Source of the DNA: Marsupella aquatica
Lineage: Eukaryota > Plantae > Marchantiophyta
Direction: 5' to 3'
DNA: 64,000 nucleotides
Assembly: GCA_973895155.1 (NCBI GenBank)
Contig: OZ316891.1
Location: 17,668,095-17,732,094, forward strand
Under the pieces are notes generated by a model. It had not been told where the DNA came from, did not search any database, and saw only the letters and a program-made list of their open reading frames with translations. This document shows positions 8,268-64,000 of this stretch, in pieces. A program made the position numbers and the translations under genes. How positions within the stretch are numbered: position 1 is the stretch's first letter; every line of letters begins with the position of its first letter.

Positions 8268-11200
8268 CTACCACCACTGGAGCTTTAAGCCTGGTTCTTC
8301 TTGAGGGATTTTCCTGAAAACCAGTAAGCCCAAATAAGTATCAAACCATTACATGGCAACAGAATAGATGTAAGGATCAGGATCTCTTACTTTTCATGTC
8401 TAATCGCCTTGCATCTTCTCAAACCGGAAAAAACAGTTTAATGTAACAAATAATGGAGCAAATACATACGAAGAAACAAGAGATAAACCTCACCCAAAAT
8501 CTAGGATGATGACAGTAATGTTATCTTGACCATGGCGCTCCTAAATCCAGAGGCATTACAAAATCAGTTACGCTAGATTCTACTTCCAAGAGATGACGGA
8601 ATGCTTTGATTCCTCCTGGCTCAATGACGACGAAGGAAAAGCAACAAAAGTTTGCAAGTAGTCAAATACTCTGCATCACGCAAGCTGAACTTCAAAACCA
8701 TAAAATGTCATGATAGAACCAAATTAAGAGAACAGAATTGTTACGAACCAGAGTAGCTTGTGCAATCGCTTCAGCAGCTTTCTGCAAAAACATCCAACCA
8801 ATCGGAGGACCCAATAAGATTTTTCGACCGCTTCCATTAAGCATGCAGAACAACTGGGCACAGACAAGGGGGCCCGCGTCACAGCACTAATCAAAGAGAG
8901 TTGCCAGCTCTTTGAGCTCAGAGATTACTAGTTCAACTCACTACTTTCACTTACTCCCATTGGTCTAGGTGAAGGACGTCAACACAAAGTACCTGTATAT
9001 CTCCATGTTTTTTAAGCTGTTTTCGGATGAACTGCACAGCATCATTACTACACACAAGTATTGACATAGGGTTAGTAAAAATTCTTTTGAACAGCTTCTC
9101 ATCACAAGGCAACCGACAATCTAGGTGAAAATTGCTGGCGCTACATGTGAAAATCTTACGCTCAGCATGAACAAACCAATAAATGACGTCCGAATAGTCT
9201 GTTTGGGCCCAAAACCGGATCTTAAGGAAGATCACGATCAATCCATTAATGACGGGTGTGTTCACTACCATAAGAGAACCTTTGCTTTCATGTTTACCTT
9301 TTGAACGAGTCCCACAGTCCATCAGACGCAATAATAATAAATTCAGCATCGTCCTCCAGTTTTATCCGACTGACATCCGGAGTAACTGATAGCCAGTTAC
9401 CATCCAAATTTAACCTTAAACATCCAAAGGCACTAAATGTCAGCCGTCAAACGAGCCATCATTCCGTAACAAGGATGACTGGAAGTCACTCCCATGATTA
9501 CGAGTCCAGCAGCCATTTTGCACAAGCTATGTTCCAACGTTGGAATTACATTCAAACAAAGATCGTATTGCAATCGAGGGAAACAAGCCCTGAAGGTAGA
9601 CACCTTACCTAGAACTATGAGCCCTCTGACTTATTCGAAAGAGAAACATCACAGGGTGAAAAGGGATCTCTTATTCTCATATGAAACACGACGAGCTGTA
9701 GAAATGCTAGGAGGAGAACAGAGCATTGCCAAGGCCAACATGACAAACGTATGAAGGCGAACGAAAGAAAACTGCATGCTTATTCAGAACCGACCTTTCA
9801 GTGAAAGGCCTTGTCCACAGCCTCTGCGTAATTCCGTCTTCCAACATCCTGTTATAAATAAAGATAATATCAGTAGAGGGTTGACACATTCGGAAACTAC
9901 AAGCAAGCTATAGCACTCTCACACAGTTGCTCAGCAGGAGCCAAACGAAGTGAATTTCTTCGATCCATTCGAGGCAATCACATTAATTTATTAGTAATCA
10001 CGTACTCTTTCTTCTTAGTTTTGAAGCCCACATCTCCAAATGCACGAGAGACAGATAGTGTTGAGCAAAGTCTCCCATGGCTAACCTGTACAAACAAGGA
10101 CAGCTCGAAGGTCTCAGGCATAATACCAAAGACTTGAATATCGGGCAACAATCCAATAAACCTGAGAAAAATGACTCACAAACAAGGACATGTAGCCAAA
10201 GATGAGCTACACACCCAGCCTCCTTCTGTCTTGATTCGTTTGATTTCTGCAAGGGCTGTCTTGCTGTTACCAAAGGGCCGATGATCGCCTGATAGGTCTA
10301 CGGCTTTACCACCCTGAGCAAGGACCTGCATATGCTTCATCAAACTACTTAGTGTTCAGTTAAAACACGAACGCACTCATTGCTTGAAGCTCTGCTTAGT
10401 TTTCACCTACACGCGCGCTATAATGTTCCTGTAACATGAGACACAATAGTAGTAGGAGTTCAAAGTGTGCTCTTTCATCCTGTAGGAACAGACATTTAAC
10501 TATGGACGGGGTCATAAGAATTTCGGGTCATGGTGAAGGACGAGACTGCTGAGAGAAGTATTACCTACCGCACGCGAGTCCCCGACATGCGCAATAGTGA
10601 CAGAATCGTCGCGCATAAACAAAATTGTACCAGTGGCACCTGCTTCTTTCTCTTCAGCATCTGACGCTAGCCTGTAGGAATCCCAACACCAGCAACTGAG
10701 AATTATCGCTCACGATGAAATTGCATCATTAGTGATAAATCCGGCATTCAGCGCAATACTGCTTCTCTTACTGCCAGACTACAACCCAACCTTAGATGGC
10801 TTACATCAGCTGGGTCGATGACCATGTGAGAAAGTAATTTTACAGTGCGTCTTCGTTTTCAAAGCTAGCAAACAGAAGTAATAGATGGGAAGTGGCACCA
10901 TTGCACAGGCGTAAAAAAAGTAAGACACATTACAAAGTGGGTCAGACTAGTAACCACCAGGATAGTAAGCGGGTGTCAGTTTGTTGAAAGGCATTTACTA
11001 GTGCGCCTTCCACTGCATTCTGGTCATCAGACTCCAGCAACTTGCCTCCCTGAAGAGCTTCAACGCATTCCTTGTAGAGCTCATTCCTACATCATCCAAC
11101 TACATTATTACGGAGCTCATGTTTCAAGGTTGTAAACAAGCAAACTCCACATATATTGGAGTGCACCTGCTGATGAATTCAACAGAAAGAACACAAAGAT

Positions 11201-14356: not shown

Positions 14357-15176
14357 TCAGGGGTAAGGGTCGATCTGAGCCGTCTCCATTTCTTGTCTCC
14401 GGAAATCTCGTTCGTCCATCATAATGGCCAATCTATGGCTCAAAAGAAAGATCTCAAAAGAAAGATCTCAAAGAGATCTATGGATGGGTTCTGTCCGTTT
14501 TGTAAATGGATTAATATTTTTCAAATGAAAAATAAAACAAATCCAAGCCTTCCTAGCCGTGGATTTTGTTGATTTTACAATCTTTGCCGTCCATTTTATA
14601 ATGCCTCTAGAAATCTTATTCATCCATGTTAGAAGGCCATCTAGGGTGCAAAAGAAAGATCTCAATGAGATCTACGATTGGGTATTCTTTGTTTTGAGAA
14701 TGATTAAATAGTTTTGAGTATAAAATTCGGTGAACTTTCAAGATTCCAGCCATTCCTCCTCCCCGATCCTGGGTTTCTATGTGCTCTTCCCAGCATTAAT
14801 GGCTGTACAATACAAGAGGTCCTTATACACCAGGAGTTGCGATTTAACAAGTAAGTTATCAAGTTAGTTATTAGCCATTATTTATTATATGAAAAATACT
14901 TTTTAAAAATCTTTGAATTTAAGTTTTAAAATTGGAAATGTAACTAAAACGGTTACATAGTGACAGTTTTAATCGTCTTGTGTTTTGCATTTCTAACTTT
15001 TTTACTTCTCTTTTTACGGCATGGCGTCCCAAAATTTACACGCAAATTGACGCAAACACGAATGAAAATTGTAAGTTCGATTAACAAAACTGACAAGTCT
15101 TGTTTGTTGCGGTTGTTGTTGACGTGGCACGCTCTGGTGCCAGGAATTTTGGAAGGGACCTCTAGTGGGGTCCGTA
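14357..15176. repeat. Dispersed ~820-bp non-coding repeat (non-autonomous TE-like), copy 1
   Basis: Reverse-complement match to 39919-40738, e.g. GGAATTTTGGAAGGGACCTCTAGTGGGGTCC vs GGACCCCACTAGAGGTCCCTTCCAAAATTCC. Repeated AGATCT / ATCTATGGCTCAAA submotifs. Confidence 0.85.
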
Positions 15177-16856
15177 ACTAAACATAGTAAAATTAAAAAT
15201 CTCTACCTTCAAGTGTACTAAGGTCATGTTACCAGACAATTATGGGCATAGCCTCTCATAACTTGAGCTCAAGCTTTCGTTTTTGGAAGCATCATATCCC
15301 ACAATGACCTGTTGCTATATTCATAAAGTATCATCAAATGTGATGCCTAGTTTTTAGGAAATTCAAAGAACATGAAAGGCTCCCCACTATCAGAAATAAA
15401 TCTGTGGTTACTATTTGGTCTGTGTGAGGACATAGATTTTCTTTATCAAACTTTTGTCCCCTCTCTCGCACACTTTACAAAAAGAAATAAGGTCTACTAT
15501 TACAAAGATTATTCAGCGTCGTACCACAGCTTCCAGCAAGTGCTACGTCGACTGTTCAATTGTAAAACCAAATATGGCCACGGGTTTCAGCAACAAAAGG
15601 AAGGGCTCAGACTGGAAGAGAAACTGGTGAGAGAAGCCCCCAACAATACAGCTGGACATAAAGTCTGAATTTGCGTAACCTGCAAAAAATCCAAAATTCT
15701 AGCCAGGGCACATTCACAAAAATTTGCTTTAAGTTGCATAATCAATCAACTTCTTGACATGGAGCTCTGCAAAACGTCACATCAAATAAGTTTACTGGAG
15801 ACAGTTTGATGAGGTGAAAGTGAAATACAAACAGAATATGATATCGTACATCTTCGTAATTTAAAATTCGGAGTTGTGAACGATGGAAATTTCTTGTAAA
15901 ATATTTGTGTTTCCAGAAGATATCGTTACCCTCATCCCAGCTCACATCACTCTTCCTCAAGATATCTAGATTTCTAAATGTCTGTGGATTTTTGCTTGCA
16001 AAGAGGACTGGATCATTATTAAGTTCAGCACTTAGTGAGCTGTTGGAATACCACTGCGTATCGGTTTTTATTTTGCTGACTGCTAGACCGAGTTCCTCTG
16101 TCGAATACATTCAGGACCTCGCCTACAGTATATTGGGATTCTTCCTGATGTGATGCATCCATAGGCTTATTTCTAAACCTACATGTATTAAATCGATTTG
16201 CTTTTTGAAATTGCTCTGTCCGCTGTTTACAATTTCTGAAATCAGTAACGAAGTCACAGTAATGAAAGGAAATATGTCACAAAGCAGCGGTACCAACCGG
16301 TTGTACGCAAGTCAATGTATTAAATTTGCTTTGGCAGCCTCTTTAGTGGCAATCAACGTCTGTTCTACAATTCCCAGAGGACATATGGCTGCCAGGAACA
16401 GGCCGGTCATGGTGATGGACAATTTGGAATATCAGATAGGGGCTTCGTAACCAATTTGAAGGGAATACAGTTCTCACTGCCTGAAGTGAGGAGACAACAT
16501 CGTAATCCACTGCTAATTATTAAAAGTTCCAAGGTGCTGGAAACTTCGGCTCCTTCCAAGTTCACTTTTTTGGATATTTCCATCTGATTGTAGGAAGATT
16601 CAACGTGAAGCGATGATGGGACTTAGATGATATGAGGAACATCATCCAGCTACGTGTCATCCATACCTTATGAGAATAATTAGCTGGAGTAGCACTACGC
16701 TAGTAAATTTGCACAAGGTCAGATAGACTCAATACAGGAAGTGAGCAGAAATCGCTCTAGCCAAAACCGCGGTGGACTGAAATTCGGTGGACTGAAATTA
16801 CCCAAGGGATGATGGGATTTAACCTATGAGTCCACCCCTCAGTTCCTACTTACGGC

Positions 16857-38800: not shown

Positions 38801-39918
38801 AAAAGTCTCAAAACTGGCTTGAAGGACCCTACTAATACTTTGTTCAAAAAGTTGAAATTCTTCCCTGAGAAGTTTGTTTAGCAACCAAGAGCAAAATGTT
38901 CTTGTCAAGAAAGGGTCAAGAATTGCACTGAAATGACAACTATTGAATCTATAAAACTGAATCACCAAACAAATCATGCAATCCTATTAATCTTTCCCCA
39001 GGTCACATCATGAGAGGCCCTACAAAAGTAATTACTCTGCCACTTGATGTGGAGCTCAAGAGGCTAGATGCCAATTCCATTAATGGAGCTCAAGAGGCTA
39101 GATGCATCCACTTGAAATTTGCTGAATTCTAGCAATTTGACAATAAATAACCTAACTAGGCTATATTCATAACTCTAGACCTAAGAGAAAGTACCTGATA
39201 AATGGTTGCCAATGACAGGGTGAGTGTAGCTAGGTGAAAACAAGCATTTTTCAAAAACCCCAACTATAACAAGATCTGGACACAAAACATGCACCTACTG
39301 TCCTATATCAAGTGCTCAGAACCCTCATCTTGATAACCCTAAACTATACATTCATTGAGAAAAATCAACACTAAGTCACACAAAGTGTACAACATCAAGT
39401 TACAAAGCATCTATGAGCTCAGGGGCCTCACTATGTGAAGCCCTCCATCACCTCTGACATTTCAAGATCTGGTACATCTTAAGACTTAAAGAAAAGAAAA
39501 GTATTCTCTTTAGTTCATCAATTTTGAATACTTTTGGAATGTTCCAAAATTTGGTTGAAAATTTTTATATTTTCTTAGAAACCTCACAATTGAATTTCAA
39601 AAACTTTGAAGTCCTTTTATGGAGCAACGTTCTAATTTGTTCCATGTGAGGTGCCATTGTTGCATAAATGATACCTGTGCTAGTGAGACCCCTTGCTCAA
39701 AGAGAGACACCTCTTGAGACATTCACCAAGACAAAATTCTCTCAATTGACATGCTATGTTGGGCCAGGTAGTGCTGGGGGTTAGGAACTTCAGATAGGAA
39801 GAGTGTCGGGTGAATAAAGAGTGTCAACCTGACGGTTGTCAAACAATATGTTCTACAAGAAGGTTAGGATTGGCTCATTTTTTCTTATTAAATAGGCTAA
39901 ACAGACCAAAAAGTATTA

Positions 39919-40738
39919 TTATGGACCCCACTAGAGGTCCCTTCCAAAATTCCTGGCACCACAGCGTGCCACGTCAACAACAACCACAACAAACAAGACT
40001 CGTCGATTTTGTGAATCAAACTTCTAGTTTTCATTCGTGTTTGTGTCAATTTGGGTGTAAATTTTGGAATATCATGCCGTAAAAAAAAAAAGTAAAAACA
40101 TTGAAAATGTAACCGTTTTAGTTACATTTCCAATTTTAAAACTTAAATTCAAATATTTATAAAAAATATTTTTATATAATAAATAATGACTAATAACTAA
40201 CTTGATAACTTCCTTGTTAAAGGGCAACTCCCGATATATAAGGACCTCTTGTATTGTACAGCCATTAATGTTGGGAATAGCACATAGAAACCCAAGATGG
40301 GGAGGAGAAATGGCTAAAATCTTGAACGTTCATTGAATTTTATACTCAAAACTATTTACTCATTTTTAAAACAAAAAATATCCAATCGTAGATCTCATTG
40401 AGATCTATCTTTTGCACCCTAGATCATCTTCTAACATGGATGAATAATATTTCTAGAGGCATTATAATATGAATGACAAAGATCATAAAATTAACAAAAT
40501 CGACGACTAAAAAGGCTTGGATTTTTTAATATTTGAAAAATATTAAATGATTTGCAAAACAGACACAACCCATCCATAGATCTATTTGAGATCTTTTTTT
40601 TGAGTCATAGATTGACCATTATAATGGACGAACAACCATAGATCTATTTCTTTTGAATCATAGATTGGCCATTATGATGGACAAACAAGATTTCCGGAGA
40701 TAATAAATGGAGACTCTCAGATTGACTCTTCCCCCTGA
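39919..40738. repeat. Dispersed ~820-bp repeat, copy 2, inverted relative to 14357-15176
   Basis: Colinear reverse-complement homology; this copy appears more AT-shifted. Confidence 0.85.
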
Positions 40739-40924
40739 TTTATTAGCCAAGGGGTCCACCAACTAATTTGATATAGAACGCTCAGATTGACTCTTCCCCC
40801 TGATTTATTAGCCAAGGGGTCCACCAACTAATTTGATATAGAACCGGCATTGGGATAAGGTACTAGAGTGGGTCCACCAACTAATTTGATATAGAACCGG
40901 CATTGGGATAAGGTACTAGAGTGG
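40716..40924. repeat. Overlapping 65-bp and 53-bp tandem duplications at the repeat border
   Basis: CTCAGATTGACTC...GATATAGAAC x2, then GGGTCCACCAAC...GGTACTAGAGT x2. Confidence 0.9.
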
Positions 40925-52700: not shown

Positions 52701-55110
52701 TACTTGATCACTGGGCTCTTGGCTCCTTGGTTGTCCCCCCTTGATTGGAAGTTTTGTCTGAGGGATCAGGTCTCCTAGTTGGGTGCCTTTGGTGTTATTG
52801 TAATTTGATATATTATAAATCTCATCTGGCGACTAATTTTGTCAGCTATAGTAGGTAGTGATTTGGCAAAGAGGAAATCTCTATTTTTAATTTGAATTAG
52901 ATCATCAGAACATTTTCCAAGTGAGATTAAAACCAGCAGTATCCCCAACCCTTTGGAAAGACAAAATAGTCCACCATTTACTATGTTAATAACATTATGT
53001 ACTAATTATGGTAAGTGAATCAGCCAGGTTTTGCTTCAGAGATAATGATACTTTAAGTCAAAATTGACCCAGAAAAATTGTTTAAGCTACGGATCTCTGC
53101 TGGGTTGACTAGCCTCTATTATTGCTATTTACTTGCTAATAAAGTATGCTTTCAAAATTGTCCTGAGGATATAAGCGTAGTCTATTGACTGAACCAAAGC
53201 TGACCTGATAGTTTCTAACTCGTATATTTTAATCTTCATTGCTGCAATAAAGTATTCGTGTAAAACAAAGCAGTCCACTGTGTGTACCAGTGTACCTATT
53301 ATTAAAGAGGCAACGGCCAATATTAGAACCGCAACTGATGGCATAGATATTGGGATTTTGGGGGCAGGCAAGGTTCTGTTGGAAAGCGTTTGGGGCACCA
53401 CCGCAGCATCATCTTCAACTAACCTTACGAAGTTTGACGGCTCTGACGACGAAGGTCTTCGGTTACCGCAGTCAAAACCAATGCAGAACCTGGAACTCGT
53501 AAAGGTTCAAACGCACTGTTTCGACCTCGGGAGCGAGTCTAGGGCTGGGTTCTGTTGAGTACTGTATGACTGTGTTAGACCCCGGTTGTGTACCTCCCAC
53601 AGTTTCCTAGAAAGTGTAGCATGATTTTATTTCACCTAAAGATTATAGGATGCAATCTTGGTGGATTATAGGTCATTAGTGCCTCTCAAAGCTAGGTCAT
53701 TAGAGAAAGTTAAGTATTTATGATATATCCCTTCCTATAACTCAAGTTATGGAACCTAGTTGTAGAATTTTAAAAATGGGGGGAGATAACATTGACCCGC
53801 TTCACAAGGCATAATTATGGTCTCACTTGTCTCATACCATATATTCTTTTTTCCTTAATTCTTGACCAACTGCCGCCTCAATGCAGCAGCGATCACCATG
53901 TCAGGAGCAAATGCCACGTGCCTGCAGTCGCGGCGTTCTGGGGTTCCAGAGTCCTGGATTCCTGATTTCTGCCTAAGTTGCGGGAAAGTTACGTTTCAAG
54001 TGTTGAGCCCGTGGGCTTTCCTTACGGGAGCCGAAGGTCAGCTCCCATAACTTTTACGGGAGTTACCATAATATTTGAGTTGTGAGAATACCTTATCTTG
54101 TTAAGGCCAAGCTTTTAGACGCCCCAACACTTTCCCCTTAGCTCCCAAAGGTCTTGATATCCACTTAATAATATAGACAATACTAAGCAATGGCAGGTGC
54201 ATTGGGCTAGTTTTAACATAACAGAAATGTGTTACTTGTGTTACAGATTATATTTTTTCCTGCAACCTACAACCCAATTAATATTTTTATAGGCCTTTTC
54301 CTTTCTTTGGCAGAAGTAGTGTCCAAGCATTCCCTAGCTATAATCAACACCTCATGCATGTCATACCCTTATGGCCCTTTGAGATGTTACTCTTCGTAAC
54401 TTTTTGTGCCTTTTTGGAGAACAGTGCGCAGATTCAGATGGGGGATCATGAAACCTCTCTTCTACGTCTACAAATAATAAGAATTAATAGCCTCCCTCAC
54501 GCCTTGAGAGTATTAGTACTCCGTTACTAGCGCATTATTGGGGGCATTATGGGCAATAAGGCCCACTCAAAACTCAAGCTAAATCCCTTGTTTTTGGAGG
54601 CCTTATGGCCCACTATGTTCTATAACCTGAAGATTATCATACATCTAATACCCATCATGATTTTCTCTTAGTCTTTCAGGGCATTTCTGGAGATTGGGAT
54701 GACCTTCCAATGACCCTACAAGCTACACCGCATCAGCCAGATCATCATTGAAGAAAAAATGCATCAAAGGGGTGATGACTGTATTTAATAAGGGAAGGGG
54801 CCCAAAATGGAGCAAAGGATAGGGAAGGGGCCAAAAAATGGAGCTGCACTGACCTTTGTTGTGTTAAGCCATATTTCTTGGGCTCCCTCTAAATGACAGT
54901 CATTCCATAAAGTCTTCTAGATAGAGATGACTCCCATCCCCCTTACACCATCTGGTTTTAACAGGTGATTAATTGTGAAGGCACCCCGCATCTCTCAACT
55001 CCCAACAGGCGGCTGCAACTCACAAAGAAGGCTCCCTCAATGAGAATTTACCGGCATAGGGTTAGTATGATAGAAATCATTTGCCAATGTAGCATTAAAT
55101 ACCACGGATC
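49800..55110. other. Gene-free tract, probably decayed transposon/LTR debris
   Basis: No coherent ORF. PPT-like GAGGGGAGTGA-TG at ~51893, a GC-rich gag-like patch at 51300-51760 and a short direct repeat at ~54791/54821. Confidence 0.35.
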
Positions 55111-55120
55111 TTTGCTGCTC

Positions 55121-55437
55121 ATTCAGCGCGATCGCCAGTCTCGATGCACATTAATGCATCGAGGCAGGACGGATTACAGTAACGCGAGCCTACTTACATG
55201 TGATTACGAGTTTGGGGAGTCAGTGAGGTTTTCGGGCAGCGTGTCCCTTGCCATTCGGTGAGTCAGCGCACCTGTTCCCAAGGGCCAGACCGGGCTGTCC
55301 CTATCCCCTTCGCAAGGCATTCCGGGCCCAGTTCACTCGCCCGCCCGCACCCCAAGTCCTCGTGGGCTGCTACCTTCGACACAGTCGCCCCCCTTGTCCA
55401 AGTTGTATGTACATGGAATCATACTTTGTCAAAATTT
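55121..55437 (+). repeat. Left terminal inverted repeat (317 bp)
   Basis: Exact reverse complement of 63516-63832 on base-by-base reading. Confidence 0.97.
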
Positions 55438-55709
55438 ACCATACTCGTATCCAAAATGAGTGAACTTGACACTTTTGCGTAGTTTTGACAATTCCCGCCA
55501 GAGTCAGTTCTCCTGACCTATTGTATCACAGTCTATCGCACTCGTTACTTTTGCCTAGGGCATTGAGCGGTGAGGCGCATCGAGCATCCAAGCGAGAGTT
55601 CCGATCTGCAGTGTGCTTCCATTTCTGCAGAGATTGAATTAAGAAGCAAAGTTCGTGGTCAGGGCGATCCGTCAAGATTACAGTAAGGGATTCTTGATTT
55701 GGTAAGGCA

Positions 55710-56594
55710 ATGTCGATGACAACCCTGTTCGATGTGCACAATGCAATAATGAGAGAGGACACTGGTTTTTTGGGTCCATGTAGTGTTGTGGTATTGAACT
55801 TTATCGCCACCAATCCTTTCCCCAAGAAATTTGTGTATCGAGGCTGTACCGAGGTCGTTGCAAGAGGTTTATGTAAAATCTCAATCGAAGGCCCCAGAGT
55901 GAACCATTGTGAGCACGACGCTTTGCAGAGTGGACATTACAGCAAATTTTTCCGTTTCGAGGTGTTGTTGACTGATGCTACCTTGCATTCGCATTCTGGC
56001 AAGCCTGCTTTGAGAGCTGCAATTTGAGATGCTGCAAGAGATTTAGTGCAACTATCTGCGACTGCTCTAGCTTGTATGGAGCCGATAGATCAATTTCAGG
56101 TCATGCATGATTCCATCAAGGATGCACCGCTTTGCAATGTGAGGTTTCGAATTAATCGTGGTATTTTGTCTATCCATGAGTTGGAAATTGTTTCTTCAAG
56201 CAGTACTTTGGCACAATCTCGTCTATGGACCCAGACTCGAACTCCGCGGCAACAAGGATCGCGAGGTCCACACTTGTCGCCCGGCCTACGCGTTTCCAGT
56301 CAGGGACGCAGCCAATCCAATGCAACTCAATTCAACACCACTGCACCAACATCTGCTACCATAGTGTCATCCCCCGGCCTCCCAGTGCTGACACAGTCAC
56401 CAGTAACCGAATCCAAGGCAGCATCGTATGCCACAACTACATCAAGTGTCGGAGAAGTGTTAGACGTGGTACAAGCTGAACGAGAGAATGAACACACCGA
56501 AGACATCCAGCAAGGCACCATGTCATCCATTGTTCGACGATTAGCAGAAGCTTTCAGTGCATCCCTAGATGTGTACTCTGGGCGGAAGGGATAG
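55710..56594 (+). pseudogene. RPA1 DBD-C (Rep_fac-A_C)-like OB-fold/zinc-ribbon cargo gene with one in-frame TGA (56025-56027) and a Ser/Thr-rich tail
   Basis: ORFs 55710-56027 and 56046-56594 share one frame. The joined pattern TTLFDV..FVYRGC..CK..CEH..FRFEVLLTDAT..AI*DAARDLV.LSA parallels RPA70C (KTLYEV..YxAC..C.KK..C..C..YR..V...D..F...AE..LG..A). Confidence 0.6.
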
Positions 56595-57083
56595 TTTAGA
56601 TTGTTCTAGGCAAACATACATACATGTAGCCATTTTGGTTTTGCAAGTAGCCTCGGTCGTCTTGCTCTGTTGCAAGTGTTGGCAATATGACAGAACGCTG
56701 GACTGATGCTTGGGTGATTGACTATGTATGAGGATGAAACAAAACTTTGCATTCTGGAATTTATGCCGACATGGTTTTTATGCTGAAACTCAAAATGAAT
56801 TCCTCTGTATAGTGTGGATTGGCGGGTGCGGTTTTATGCATGGCTCCACTTTCATGCCCTGCAGTGTCCGGATCATTGCCATTGCAAGAATGAGCGGTCT
56901 ATATTGTGGTCCCACCAAAATGTATATTGTATTGCAACCATTTGTGAAGTGGATATGACATTGCAATGTTTAGTGTAACTCCATGTCACTCTGACTTTGT
57001 GAGTACAGTGATGTAATTAACTTTCATTCCCGCTATAATTCATTTCACAATTCATATATATTGATTGCAGGTGTGAAGATATA

Positions 57084-59049
57084 ATGCCACGAACAAAGGC
57101 CCAGGTACTACTCGCTCACGAATTACTTCATGAATTAGAACATGAGTTGAATATTCAGTTACTGACACACCTCGCAGAGTATGAGTAGACTCACGTATTG
57201 CATGTGGTCCCATTTCAGGCTCGTAGTCCGGCAATGTGCGAATCCACTATGCTCCAACGTCGATCATCAGAGGTGGATGGGGATACGGATGTGCCAGTGC
57301 TCCCTGTGGCCATCCTGACCAAACCACGTCAGCGGTTGCTACTCGAGGACCCACCACCGGTCCCACAGGATCAGTCCTTTGAACCCATCGAACCCAACAA
57401 TAGTGAGGAGGATGAAACCCAGGTTATGGCAATGATACTGCCGAGTCCTTCCAAAATGGTACCAAGAACAACTACGAAGAGACGAAAGTCGTATGTTGGG
57501 AATCAATATAAAAAACATCACGTACCCCACACTGCCAACCATGAATCACTTCCAGCCCAAAATAGACCAACCTGCAATGACAGCAACGTTAACCCTCCTG
57601 GCCACGGACCTTCGACTGAGGCAGGGAATTCGGGTGTCGACCGTGGATCTTTGTGCAAGTGTGTCCAAATGCCCGAAGCATGTGCAATATGCAAATCGGT
57701 AAGTGAACTCAGACCGTGGCAATTTAATTTTGTGTGTGAGTGGCAAGACCTTCGACTCAAATCAAATCCTGCTTTTTTTCTCAACAGGAGTCACAACTGG
57801 CATGCGAAGCTAAAGAGGGAGTGCATTTTTCTCGTCTCGGCATTGGCGCTGTGTGCAAGACATTGCCGTGCAGGAATGTGCGTTTCAATAACCGTCGCAC
57901 ATATGGCTGCCATGTTTTCAAGAAGCATGGCCTCATCACTGAAGGGACTCCCCGAATCTTCTATACAAAAGACATTGTTCCACTGAATGGTGCAAGGCCA
58001 AAGCAAGCAGGGCTGCAATTGTCGTCCAATTACTATGACGTGAAGGGAACACTACGACAAAGATGGAGCATTGCCAAAAAACGGGTGAAGTACGTACATC
58101 AGCCCATAAAGGTCGATCATATCCTGCATTATTTTGTCTGTCGTGGCCACCATGTACTGATTGGAAGGAAATGCAATTTGTGGTGTAGGGCTTTGACTCA
58201 CACCAAGTACGTCATCCAATTTGAAGACAATCGTATAAGAAATCCCCCGCCCACAGTTCCATCTGAACCTATGTTTATCATGTTCTTTGAGTTAATCATG
58301 CCAACAATTGGCTTCCAGGTTTGGGATAGTCTTCTCAATGACACTCACTGGGCCTGCTTGCAATCCTTGCTCGCGCAATGCCCACATTCCTCGACCGTAG
58401 GTTCCTGGACCACCACAGCTTTTTCTGATGTGGAGCACATTGCCTATGGGCACTTAGACGACTTTCAACTTGGAAGACTGACCCGACTAGCTACAGTCAT
58501 GAGGAATTTCTTTGAACCAGTTCAACCCTCAATCGATGCTCATTTGATTGATTATGCAATGGCGCAGTCTCGACAATACATGTGCGATGATGCTTTGAAT
58601 TGGATGTGTACAAAGCGTGACAGTCTAATGTGGGACGAGGAACACGGATGGGCAATTTATCAGAGTCTGGGGGAAAAGGAGTACAAGGTTTGGAAGGAAG
58701 GCAACAAGGCTCATGCAATTCAGTGTTACATACCCAACATAGTGGCCTCATACAAGACTCATGTGTCTTGTACCGAAGATTTTGCAATGGACCAGGTAAA
58801 ATGTATTTTCACTTTTCACTTTTACAACCTTTCACTGCTGTCCGTGTTTAAGCGTGAATGGTTTACTTTGTGATGTAAATAGTCAAATAACTATATTCAG
58901 TAACCATTTATGTTTCGCAGGTTTTGCTGGAGGCTGTGTGGATTGACACCTCAGACGAGGAGCCAATAGACGAGTCTGATGCTGATAGAAAGGATCAGGA
59001 GCGTTGTCTTGATGAAGACGCGGCTGAAATGTTCGGAAATGTAGTGTAG
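57084..59049 (+). CDS. Spliced cargo gene (~545 aa) with a Cys-rich AWS-like and degenerate SET-like region. Exons 57084-57104, 57219-57698, 57788-58795, 58921-59049
   Basis: All junctions are canonical and phase 0 (CAG|GTAC, TTTCAG|GCT, TCG|GTAAGT, CAACAG|GAG, CAG|GTAAA, GCAG|GTT). The frame is open from MPRTKAQ to an acidic tail. The domain call is by eye only. Confidence 0.65.
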
Positions 59050-59506
59050 TAAGGAGCATGCTACATGTCAGTAGTGTGTATTGGTGCACAGTTTAGGTTA
59101 CACTATCCCAACTTGCGCGGGTTTCAAAAAGTTACGTAGCCAGTGATAGATACACGGATCCATCTGATCTTGTATGGATTCCTCAGTAATAAAGATACCG
59201 ACGCTCACATTCTGAATGCAATTGTGTTTCTCGCCTAGTAACTAAGGCATTTTGAAGGCGCGCATGACCCGGAACTGTAAGGGAAGCCATATTCAATTTC
59301 ATTCAGACCACTAGGAAAACTCATATGTAAAGATGACGTGTGTGTAAATGCTTTGCGAGCATTTAAATTCAGGTCTTACATGCAAACAATCATGCCGACG
59401 CTATATATTCATATATGATGCCCACTCTTCAAATACAACCAAGGCGCAAATGACCATAGATTATGCGCGCTGCCAAATAAATGTATGGAATTAATCTTCG
59501 ATGGCA

Positions 59507-62500
59507 CTATTCATCCACGATCGATACTATTGGGTACTCCTTAGGAGCAATTGCTTCTTTGTCGGATGTCAATCCTGACTCAAACGCATGTAAGATTTCG
59601 GGGAAAGTAGGCGACATAGCCCAAGTCTGGCTACAGCCAATGTGGATTTGACCAAGAATGTCCATGTTGGCTGCAGTCGCTGGTGCTTGAAGGACCGCGG
59701 ATTGAGAAGCCTGGGTAATTGCGGTGTGCAGCGGGAAGGGTGGCGCTGATCGATTTTTTCGAGTCTTGGCCGCCCTTGATGTGACAGGCTTTGACGATTT
59801 TCCATTCACCTTTGTAGCAGTGTGGTCTGTGATGGTTGTGCACATTTCCCCAAGGGCTTCCATGGATTCCTTATCAAACTTAGCTTGGAATGATAAAGCC
59901 TTATCCTTCCGTTTAATCTGTAGTTTATCAGGGGCGTTGTGCCCACGCACCATATTCCGCGGGTCCTGAGGACGCGGGTCTTCATTCTCTTTGTTGCACA
60001 TGTCATTGCCAACTTTCTCCTTGCGCTTGCGTCTTCCCTTTGCAATCATCAATTTGTCTACCCAACCACGTTTGGGGACGGTAGATCTGTCTACACCCTC
60101 ATCTGGAGTAAGCTTTTGAAGACCCGACTCAGGCTGCAGCCTGGCAACATTTTGTTGTGCCTCTCTCACGAACAGAGACTCCATCCAATGCTTCAACTCA
60201 ATCAACCCTTGTTTGGCAAGGGTCGGGTGATATGAAATCTGATTGTAACATCTGGAGATAACCAGTTGGTACTCCTCCAAAGGCGGAGAAAGATCATCAA
60301 CCTGCGATGTGCCTTCAGGCGGTGCCTCCCACATATCCTCTCCATCATACATTAGACTGACATTGCCAACCTGCGTAGGCAAGTCCGAGCCTTCCCCATG
60401 CGCTACGTTGAAGTGGTGATCAAGCCCACCCGAAAATGACCCCATTTTGGTTCCGAGCTGCTAGAGAATTTCCAACTCTATCATCTTCTTTGTCAGTAGC
60501 AGGACTTTTATCTGCGCATCATGACATGAAAACTAGGTAAGATTGAATCTCAATGAAGTTTGTGCCCGCACTATACATGTACTGTCGCCAAACATATAAC
60601 GGGACTTGGTATGAAAATTACCTGGTGCTTGCATGCATTTCCCTGTAATGAATACCCACATGTACATCCGCAACTGTCTTTGTCCCAGTCTGTGACAAGA
60701 TGTTCCTTGGTCTGAGGATTGTTCGAGGAGGTGCTACGAACACATGCACATTTGGCCACCCCATAGTTGAATGTCTGGACGTAATCATCTGGGATTGCTT
60801 TGGCTCTATTCAGGGACTTATGCACAAGCTGCTCGATAGTCTTGTTCCTGATACGACCCTGGAACTTTTCTGCAGCAATACACCAATAGTGGTTCTCCAA
60901 GACTCTCATACGACCAAGTAGCCATGGTATTGATCGACCTGTAATGCTGTACCTACCCGCCTTCAACTCCATCTTTAGGGTGTGGTGCCAACGTTCGATA
61001 CCCCCATTTGTATTTTGGTTGGCATGATGGTACCCTCTTAACTTGACTGCCCAGGAGCAAACCTTCTTATGCCACTCTCGTTTGTAGTAAGCAACAAAAA
61101 TGGGCTGGCTGTCAACCCACCGATCCATAAATGCTTCTGACTCTTCTGTGATGTCTGTGAAGTAATATGTTAGCCCTGAACATGAGGAGCACATATACAA
61201 ACCTCAAAACTTCTGCTCATATGGATCCCATGGCAGCAATAATGAGCAAAGAACTGGCAGGAATGAATTATGCGCAGAGAAAATGAGAAACTCACCAGTC
61301 CCTTCAGAATACATTATTGCTCCCAAATGTGCATTGATTTGGGCTTTGGCAAATGGGCAGAAGACTTTTGTGATTATATTTTTTGTCCAAGCACGTCGAA
61401 CATGCCATGTGCAAAATGTTATGTGCACTTTTGGAAACACCTGTCTGTACACATGCCATGATGTATGGTGTCAAATTGAAGTTGTCAAGTGGTTAGATTG
61501 CACAGTGCTTGAAAGCAAAAACTTACTATACCTGATAGCGGCTTGTTCCTCGTCTGCTACATCGATAATCCAACAATTAGGAGTCCAAGGAACGGGTAAA
61601 TTGAGATGTGCCCTCCTGGCATTCACACAGTCTTTCAAAGCCATCAAGATTTGGCTGACTTGCAGGGCTCCGTAGGTTTGTAGCAGAGCAAATGCAACAG
61701 GAATGGCATTTTGGAATTTGTCAAAGACTACCACCGTGTAAAAGGAGAACTGCAACAAATAAGAAAGAAAGTAATAAGCATGGGTGTAACATTACAAGCT
61801 GACAAAAATTAAATTATGTAATACATAACAAAGAATCACTAAAATTTGCCACGGCAATTTAACACATTCCAATGAGCTTACACCAAAGTGATTGGTGCCG
61901 AAAGTTGCATCAAATGCAACAGGTCCTTCATGACCAAGTTGAGCTAGCTTCTTTTGCTGCTAGGGAGACGACCACATGAGGATGAAAGGCTGGTTTTCCA
62001 ATTTTATCTGTGGCTGATATAACAAAACTTGGTCACCATTTTGAACGACCCACAATTGTATAGCTTGTGCTTCGTCAGAGCAGTAATCCGGTTGCCGACG
62101 TCGCATAGAATCCCTGACTGTTTGGACATCTCGCGGAGTAAGCTGCATGTCCCTGGACATGATCACATCTGCATCCTCGTCCGGGTGATCTTTCCGCCAT
62201 CTTGTAAGAATCTCTTCAAAGTGAGCATCAACAATTGCCTTGGCTGTCAAACCTGCCCTCAGGTACCGTTCTATTTTAGTCCGTAGCTTCAATGAAATTC
62301 TGGGGGCTATGTGTGCATTTGCTTCAAATGCAGTGGGATCCTGCAGGCCATGGCAAACCAAATTCTGTCTGTCCAAATGATCTTTGCGGATCCATCTGAT
62401 CAATAGAGCCCCTGGACGATCCTCAAATTTGGTAGAAGTAAATGAACATCTGCATCCACGACGGACAAACATCCCTGCATGCAGGACAGGAAAACAACCC

Positions 62501-63258
62501 AACAAAAAGCGTGTTATAGTGAAACGCTGATGGACAAAAATGAGCAGAATGAAATGAATGAAAAAAGTGGAGTGATTATAATTCAAGTCACCTGTTAATG
62601 TTTTTCTCTTTAGAAAAACGCCTGCCTCCTGTGATTTCAGTTTATCAGGGACCTTCGTTGATTTCCAGCCTCGGTAATCTTCCGGACCAAAGCAGCAGCA
62701 ATATAAAGTTGTGGTCTTCACCAAAGGGCCAGTTTTGTAGATTCGGTTCTCCACCATATGTCGGGTGGTGAACTGAGTGTGGAAATTATCTCGCATGTTC
62801 TCCCCCCATATAAAATCTGTAAGCCGAGCCTCAGGAATCCAAGCGTAATCCTCTTTCGATCCAAACCATTGAAGAGCAGTATATTCGAATTCCCCGGGAG
62901 GCGGAATCTGAATTCTATCACATGTTGAGTAGGTACAGTGGCTTCTGCGTATGGCAGGACATTTCCGTGGAAGGGGGTCGAGCTCAATTTCTGCATCGTC
63001 ATCGAAATTCAGGTCCCGCACATGTTCTTCAATGCCATCCAGTGCATGTTGCACAACATTTTCCGATCTTGCGACCTTAAATTCATGGAGCCCGCTGTCA
63101 AATGTGTGTACCGGCAGAGATTCCCTTCCATTGTTGAAGGCGACCATCCTCTCCTGCAAAAAAGCATCGGACATTGGCATAGGCCCAGTATGGGGTTCAG
63201 TGCTTCCATTGCGCACGACTTCCCGCTGTGCATGTGTTGACGCAGATGTCGTAGACAT
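59507..63258 (-). pseudogene. MULE transposase (N-terminal C2H2/GCM-WRKY-like, DDE, SWIM), spliced, with two premature TAG codons
   Basis: CFGPEDY..RGCRCSF..HLD..CHG, AFDATFGTN (D), WIIDVAD (D), FCTWHVRRAW (CxxH), NTNGGIERWH (E) and SWIM CTCGYSLQGNACKH. Stops at 61960-61962 and 60461-60463. Confidence 0.9.
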
Positions 63259-63515
63259 CGATGAAACCAGTCGAGTCTTCTCAAAAGTTAGCACGAGGCA
63301 ACTGCATGCGGCACACAGGGAACACGAATGATAAACTGGAATGAGCCAAACATTCCATTCCTCATGCGGAAATGTGCATGCTGTGGCAGAGAATGTGCAG
63401 GAGGCTACATTCCACCACCACATGGAACTGTGCAGAGTACACACACGTTCGCTGCCATTCCAATCCCGCTCAAAACAAAGTATACTCATGTTTGAATGCG
63501 TACACACTGGTGGTC

Positions 63516-63832
63516 AAATTTTGACAAAGTATGATTCCATGTACATACAACTTGGACAAGGGGGGCGACTGTGTCGAAGGTAGCAGCCCACGAGGACTTG
63601 GGGTGCGGGCGGGCGAGTGAACTGGGCCCGGAATGCCTTGCGAAGGGGATAGGGACAGCCCGGTCTGGCCCTTGGGAACAGGTGCGCTGACTCACCGAAT
63701 GGCAAGGGACACGCTGCCCGAAAACCTCACTGACTCCCCAAACTCGTAATCACATGTAAGTAGGCTCGCGTTACTGTAATCCGTCCTGCCTCGATGCATT
63801 AATGTGCATCGAGACTGGCGATCGCGCTGAAT
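63516..63832 (-). repeat. Right terminal inverted repeat (317 bp)
   Basis: Exact reverse complement of 55121-55437. Confidence 0.97.
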
Positions 63833-64000
63833 TGCTGCTCTTTCTTTCAGTTTTCATGTAATCAAAGCAAGCTCTTTCGTCATGGATCAGGTTACAGGTT
63901 TTTATCTATACAAGGCAGCTCCACTATCCATCTTTAGGTCATAAATAGAGATTACGCCCCTAATCAAAGATTTCATTCTTGATTAATAAAATTCTTAAAG

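Follow-up and report, generated by a model that had tools for sequence, protein, structure and literature searches.

Results

Organization of the element

The window, the whole stretch of 64,000 nucleotides analysed here, holds a MULE at positions 55121-63832. The element is 8.7 kb long and ends in 317-bp TIRs that are identical to each other, and it is flanked by the TSD TGCTGCTC, which measures 8 bp, or 9 bp when one terminal base is counted as TSD. TIRs of commonly hundreds of base pairs and TSDs of 8-11 bp are hallmarks of MULEs (PMC6446971), and the TIR (317 bp) and TSD (8-9 bp) found here both lie within that definition. Three modelled genes, namely an OB-fold gene (the OB gene), gene 2 and a transposase gene, take up the coding space of the element. 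The OB gene starts 272 bp inward of the left TIR and faces the DDE transposase on the opposite strand. The features are:

55113..55120, no strand: left TSD TGCTGCTC, 8 bp (alternative register 55112-55120, 9 bp)
55121..55437, plus strand: left TIR, 317 bp, identical to the right TIR
55710..56594, plus strand: OB accessory gene, intronless, 294 codons, broken in this copy; homologues begin at the same place
57234..59049, plus strand: gene 2, second accessory gene, exons 57234-57698, 57788-58795 and 58921-59049, 533 codons
59507..63258, minus strand: DDE transposase of MULE type, about 1037 codons in 6 exons with 5 GT-AG introns between them
61960..61962, minus strand: premature TAG at transposase codon 394, the sole internal stop of the spliced model
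63516..63832, minus strand: right TIR, inverted partner of the left TIR
63833..63840, no strand: right TSD TGCTGCTC, flanking the right TIR

The transposase model contains, in the expected order, the motifs DATFGT (411), IIDVAD (481), CxWH (504), GGIERWH (593) and SWIM (706), which we take to be DDE-type, CxxH and SWIM-finger motifs. Pfam matches to its exons were below cut-off (MULE, E 0.18, in the CxxH exon, profile positions 79-96; SWIM, E 0.07-0.16), because the exons were scanned apart. A homologue search among candidates of length 757-2160 recovered 0 of 618. At the position of codon 394 related transposases presumably have W, and the transposase of this copy is broken by one stop, like its OB gene. 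Gene 2 has no internal stops in this copy and is cysteine-rich near 57650-57900. It had no Pfam or PDB match, its homologue search gave 0 of 263 candidates, and its Atlas matches were all below 0.9. A short ORF from 57084, upstream of gene 2, has no GT-AG sites that would join it to the gene in frame.

By CpG/CHG ratio the element could not be told from host genes, and no empty-site joint was found among the joints listed for related contigs. Classification of the element as a Pack-MULE was rejected, as it is 8.7 kb long and has its own transposase gene and a whole ORF under apparent selection; a close host parent was also absent among 27 RPA70C rows, a comparison that covers RPA1 parents only.

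Elsewhere in the window, spliced FtsH-like and receptor-kinase-like genes, recognized by eye, neighbour the element. Together with the homologues described below, they point to a land plant, probably a liverwort, as the host. An older inverted pair of about 800 bp (14357-15181 and 39916-40738; 87-89% identical, 24.7 kb apart) has host-like genes between its members. No TSD was found for this pair, which probably represents two oppositely oriented copies of one repeat. A 40-bp core at 54544-54583 occurs in many contigs of three runs with unrelated flanks and is probably the end of another abundant repeat. A 500-bp segment is present twice (8492-8995 and 20612-21106; 76% identical, 12.1 kb apart), and there are short tandem arrays at 18487-18896 (97-102 bp units), 23988-24154 (65 bp) and 40713-40922 (53-65 bp).

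The OB gene is interrupted by one stop codon

The frame 55710-56594 on the plus strand contains exactly one internal stop, the TGA at 56025-56027, which separates the stop-to-stop ORFs 55698-56027 and 56028-56594. The initial annotation had described two ORFs in one frame split only by TGA at 56025, and translation confirmed this. The gene encodes a zinc-ribbon OB domain followed by a linker enriched in S, T, P and G, after which comes an amphipathic C-terminal helix. The zinc-ribbon spacing, the FRFEVLLTD strand and the helices after it, also claimed in the initial annotation, were all found. Since the homologues begin at the same position as the OB gene itself, we discarded the idea of a further coding exon upstream of it. 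Its parts are:

55710..56195, plus strand: predicted RPA70 DBD-C-like OB domain, residues 1-162
55845..55916, plus strand: predicted zinc ribbon, ligands C46, C55, C67 and H69
56025..56027, plus strand: premature TGA, codon 106; TGG in related copies, F or W in 61/64 homologues
56505..56579, plus strand: C-terminal amphipathic helix, predicted from sequence and conserved, residues 266-290

Contigs of related copies were taken from four public runs (X1-X4; two studies, two organism labels) and aligned to the OB gene. The suspected TGG>TGA change at an aromatic position, and the proposed check for a sense codon in other copies, were borne out by these contigs: G stands at 56027, giving TGG, in 6, 4, 9 and 5 contigs of X1-X4, or 24 contigs from four runs and two studies. 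In summed depth, G accounts for 151.6/151.6 in X1, 786.7/919.3 (86%) in X2, 2659.2/2659.2 in X3 and 425.4/425.4 in X4 (100% in both X3 and X4). Among the 68 homologues described below the column holds F in 35, W in 26 and another residue in 3, with 4 not covering it, and the best four hits all have W. The TGA is a defect of this copy, with a slight chance that it is an assembly error instead.

That the stop is no real lesion, being either an assembly error or a codon that is read through or edited, is extremely improbable. In its favour, X1 contains the left junction of this insertion without difference, yet none of its contigs has A at 56027. The window's letters at 55746 and 55925 are likewise missing from X1, however, so the contig of this very copy is simply unlisted there. 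In X2 the remainder of 132.6 depth that does not have G at 56027 matches by subtraction a remainder of the same size with the window's letter at 56060, as expected if a single contig has the window's version. The second nonsense codon, in the transposase, also fits a decaying copy. Furthermore, neither nuclear stop-codon editing nor selenocysteine is known in land plants.

Synonymous changes in OB gene sequences of related copies

Contigs 80-90% identical to the window cover the OB domain, the C-terminal helix, gene 2 and the transposase, and contigs with about 10% differences link the inner TIR to the leader of the OB gene (55392-55723). Among the contigs listed, none extends over the full OB ORF, and none links that ORF with the transposase of a diverged copy. 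Among the best supported 40 of 505 variant rows, 7 of the 10 sites listed for codons 1-165, excluding the stop, are third positions (P 0.02), and 6 are synonymous. By eye, residues 50-59 are unchanged at 8 of 10 positions in one diverged copy, which has 7 synonymous changes there, and in another LDVYS and the terminal stop survive alongside 3 synonymous changes. In the loose ends of more distant copies, residues 4-13, 50-59 and 286-290 show runs of synonymous changes, and the terminal stop is preserved (also judged by eye). Other copies carry lesions as well, and for this reason no intact host copy was seen whole: C>T at 56232, which alone would give TAG at codon 175, occurs in 2, 1, 1 and 5 contigs, paired indels at 55900/55904 in one contig type, and TGA at codon 44 in one loose-end consensus. 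The bias to synonymous changes in related copies points to the OB gene as a maintained accessory gene.

A family of stand-alone homologues

A phmmer search of 1.84 billion representatives yielded 68 natural homologues that align across the stop (best E 1e-42, 47% identity). Their identity is 24-50% and their length 73-383 aa. None has a long N-terminal extension; 60 of them contain the zinc-ribbon motif, its first residue lying at 16-116. The predicted zinc ligands are CCCH in 49/68. The plan of OB domain, linker and helix is common across the family, and the tail is more amphipathic than the linker in 41 of 48. When 30 homologue clusters were looked up, 8 were from Calypogeia fissa, a leafy liverwort, and the other 22 were Logan, ENA, JGI or SRC records, so that all named homologues come from C. 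fissa. The C. fissa members are 11 proteins on 10 contigs, all annotated 'unnamed protein product'. One liverwort genome has at least 8 clusters below 50% identity, spread over 10 contigs, a dispersal and diversity that would be compatible with transposon cargo.

The Pfam cut-off was reached by 0 of 59 homologues scanned, the best Rep_fac-A_C score being 19.6 bits against 28.5. At E<=0.1, CDC24_OB3 was matched by 7/69 rows and Rep_fac-A_C by 4/69. A word-indexed homologue search with the single query gave 0/1953 candidates, no related locus was confirmed in 146 metagenome stretches, and none was found in 15 viral contigs. For each of two distant members, P0055 and P0065, the ENA contig is 8582 bases long, close to the length of the element, and this may be one shared contig.

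The family alignment identifies an RPA70C-like OB fold

The reference for comparison was DBD-C of RPA70/RPA1 (Pfam Rep_fac-A_C, PF08646; PDB 1l1o, 4gnx and 6i52). An RPA70C profile was made by a motif scan of metagenomes, which gave 119 loci, 115 with the motif in frame, of which 68 were kept after short, duplicate and intron-broken rows had been dropped. In a spot check 5/5 reference rows matched Rep_fac-A_C, 4 of them above cut-off.

The query alone gave little. The Pfam search proposed for the read-through translation returned no family at E<=10, and phmmer found no match among PDB sequences. The RPA70C profile scored the query at 3.9 bits, with 2/2000 shuffles as high, and pieces of four other places in the window outscored the query's full-length 2.2 bits. 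HHalign gave E 0.038, with 5/300 shuffles as high. A single-sequence AlphaFold model had pLDDT 36, and Foldseek returned nothing for it at E<=0.001.

The family gave a consistent result. Against 177,635 PDB sequences the only hits of the family profile at E<=10 were yeast RPA1-C (E 5.6e-4) and U. maydis RPA70 (E 0.75). A profile of the homologues with the query excluded aligned with the 68 RPA70C domains in HHalign (probability 96.9, E 1.4e-10), at a score of 64.3 compared with at most 15.7 in 60 column shuffles. AlphaFold with the 69-row family alignment, from which RPA sequences were absent, gave pLDDT 96.7 and pTM 0.88. For this model human RPA70C was the first Foldseek hit (E 1.8e-5, TM 0.63), and VIA-align placed U. 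maydis RPA70 447-609 (4gnx_C) first (Z 13.3, rmsd 3.2, 142 aligned), with all of its first six rows being RPA70C or Teb1-C. C46, C55, C67 and H69 align with the RPA70C cysteines as a predicted zinc site, and the aromatic of codon 106 aligns to the F of W-x-x-x-F-D/Q-E in RPA70C; we take it to be the equivalent of human F532 in strand 3. The RPA70 DBD-C-like OB fold proposed in the initial annotation is thus supported by the family profile, HHalign, Foldseek and VIA-align, and the product of the OB gene is predicted by these models to be a stand-alone, zinc-bearing OB domain like RPA70 DBD-C. The OB-fold assignment is solid only with the family alignment. POT1-C and RMI1-C stand near the top of the Foldseek and VIA-align lists. 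These act as protein-binding OB folds, and therefore the shared fold by itself shows no function.

Relation to RPA1

With RPA70 DBD-C the family shares the predicted OB barrel, a zinc ribbon in the first loop, a helical insertion after the third strand and the F532-equivalent aromatic. It differs in that identity is 11-16% and the protein stands alone, with domains F, A and B absent; the family is too short for A and B, and the four-OB architecture F-A-B-C of RPA1 was not found. Its predicted zinc site is CCCH, whereas that of RPA70C is C4; in human DBD-C four cysteines form the site (PMC7897470). The L45 hairpin, which in human DBD-C bears the base-stacking Y581 (PMC7897470), is about 8-9 residues shorter in the family than in RPA70C when compared by eye. 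In the AlphaFold model strands 141-149 and 152-162 are connected by a two-residue turn, and this region spans 12 residues in 42/58 homologues. Finally, the C-terminal helix of the family lies about 100 residues from the OB domain, with the linker between, whereas the RPA1 helix trimerises with RPA2 and RPA3. Other members of the RPA70C-like OB class, namely CDC24_OB3 (PF17244), Teb1-C, POT1-C and the CTC1 OB folds, were below cut-off or had lower Z and belong to multi-domain host proteins, unlike the family.

Of the 55 full-domain family rows, 32 entered a tree together with 27 of the 68 RPA70C rows; Helitron RPA and CDC24_OB3 rows were left out. In this unrooted tree, whose bootstrap was not fully settled, the family split from RPA70C at 100/100 and stood apart from two RPA70C rows that are plant-type by eye. 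Such a separate branch, not with plant-type RPA70C, argues against recent capture of a host RPA1. On this comparison of sequences, the OB protein is neither an RPA1 nor a recent piece of one, and belongs to a separate stand-alone family. A divergent, apparently stand-alone Rep_fac-A_C protein (L012:340-1119, minus strand; Pfam E 1e-17) was encoded on a 1.6-kb metagenome contig. Of the RPA-type rows it scored best with the family profile (E 4.7e-8, n=68), and it was the first branch on the RPA side of the tree.

We also considered that the homologues form a host liverwort family, of expanded small RPA1-like or CDC24_OB3-like proteins, one member of which was captured in the manner of a Pack-MULE. 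MULEs are known to capture host sequences (PMC6431247), and the two Pfam families matched at E<=0.1, CDC24_OB3 (7/69) and Rep_fac-A_C (4/69), are host families. Against this, the OB gene is whole rather than a fragment, and its DNA copies, 80-90% identical and with a synonymous bias, occur beside equally diverged transposase copies. The many clusters in one liverwort genome (at least 8 below 50% identity on 10 contigs) and the failure of the family to branch with plant-type RPA70C rows also weigh against capture, which we regard as quite improbable.

No Helitron features found in the element

Helitrons have an obligate ssDNA step; no such step is known for MULEs. RPA domains are known in Helitrons of plants, cnidarians and fish (PMC6431247), and an OB gene that belongs to a Helitron, or to a Helitron remnant nested in the MULE, would have such plant precedents. 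No Helitron 3' end (hairpin plus CTRR|T) was found on either strand of 55438-63515 in a strict perfect-stem test, however, the perfect stems being of 6-9 bp only, and the sole CTRRT between the OB gene and gene 2 (56703) has no hairpin. No Rep or helicase match was found among the ORFs of the element, and the TIR and the leader of the OB gene stay together in diverged copies. A nested Helitron insertion is unlikely and already largely refuted, and we give it a very slight chance. The claim that an RPA-like gene sits inside a TIR/DDE element free of Helitron ends held up, given the TIRs, the TSD and the transposase model. With the RPA70-like genes of Helitrons (PMC6431247) the OB gene shares an RPA-like ssDNA-binding domain on a transposon, such binding being predicted here. 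It differs in its carrier, a DDE element with TIRs and TSD that has neither RepHel nor Helitron ends.

Discussion

We propose that this transposon family has probably kept the OB gene for a long time as an accessory gene and that the DBD-C-like product of the gene likely binds ssDNA in transposition, a model-based reading to which we assign a probability of roughly 60%. Binding of ssDNA through the conserved basic and aromatic residues is itself more likely than not: K or R is conserved at 39 (40/62), 40 (54/62) and 82 (50/64), and an aromatic at 106 (61/64). The OB domain would bind ssDNA through a face made up of F37, K39, K40, R82, R102, W106 and R147. The C-terminal amphipathic helix on its flexible linker may tether the OB domain to itself or to the transposase, by analogy with MURB and MURA. 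The protein could then keep hold of the excised ends, or of the donor site after resection, and tip the outcome towards copy-restoring gap repair or reinsertion. Action at the resected donor break or the excised ends, favouring copy gain, has somewhat less than even odds in our view.

In MuDR, mudrB and mudrA face each other. Likewise the left TIR would drive the OB gene, which faces a transposase driven from the right TIR, as mudrB faces mudrA. The MuDR TIRs drive mudrA and mudrB (PMC10401008). The OB gene is also like mudrB in being the second gene, adjoining the opposite TIR. MURB is needed for insertion, and how it acts has yet to be worked out (PMC10401008); MURB binds the MURA N terminus (PMC12973397). 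In the present copy both the OB gene and the transposase are lost by single nonsense changes, and it would therefore move only in trans.

The main functional rival keeps the same fold and accessory status and assigns the protein to binding of partner proteins, chromatin or RNA, as an anti-silencing factor like VANC of VANDAL elements or a decoy for host RPA partners. Anti-silencing accessory proteins of MULEs exist (PMC12973397), and the homologues, at 24-50% identity, diverge fast. The L45 hairpin is short and has no equivalent of Y581 (PMC7897470), so that ssDNA binding is possibly weaker or absent. Nevertheless, by alignment the basic and aromatic residues at 39, 40, 82 and 106 are kept on strands and loops that face ssDNA in RPA70C, and we consider such a role unlikely, if a serious candidate, beside an ssDNA-binding accessory protein.

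The reading that we prefer, an accessory ssDNA-binding protein, can be taken further, more tentatively still. A liverwort MULE lineage may long have kept a private ssDNA-binding protein derived from RPA70C, with an oligomerising or transposase-binding tail. The 68 homologues would be its cargo, and the donor break would be steered to a copy-restoring or replicative route.

Compared with VANC, PMD, Peptidase_C48 and mudrB, the OB gene resembles no accessory domain described in Pfam, and two accessory genes are present here, one with a recognisable replication-protein fold. REPA_OB_2 is a DBD-B-type domain. When active TIR elements were surveyed across 1007 plant genomes, it appeared once as an accessory domain among 1846 MULE clusters (PMC12973397, Table S6) and once in a transposase row, and neither of the two supplementary files has a Rep_fac-A_C row. 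That case is a singleton of DBD-B type, whereas the OB family here is DBD-C-like; since the family falls below Pfam cut-offs, a Pfam-based survey would miss such genes. Full-text searches, together with PMC3627910 and PMC10288648, turned up neither an RPA70C-like MULE accessory gene nor this family; most subscription journals and Repbase, where an earlier description may exist, fell outside their scope. What is new here is an accessory gene in a MULE whose product has a predicted RPA70C-like fold and belongs to a family of stand-alone proteins not described before; in this copy the gene has become a pseudogene.

These findings touch on two open questions, the route by which Mutator elements increase in copy number and the role of their accessory proteins. 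A 68-member protein family missed by Pfam cut-offs is now identified, and RPA-like cargo is found also outside rolling-circle elements. A recognisable replication and repair fold in a MULE accessory protein opens the way to direct biochemical tests of ssDNA binding, transposase binding and donor-site repair. If the protein is indeed a dedicated ssDNA-binding part of a MULE lineage, it would provide the first structural handle on MULE copy gain.
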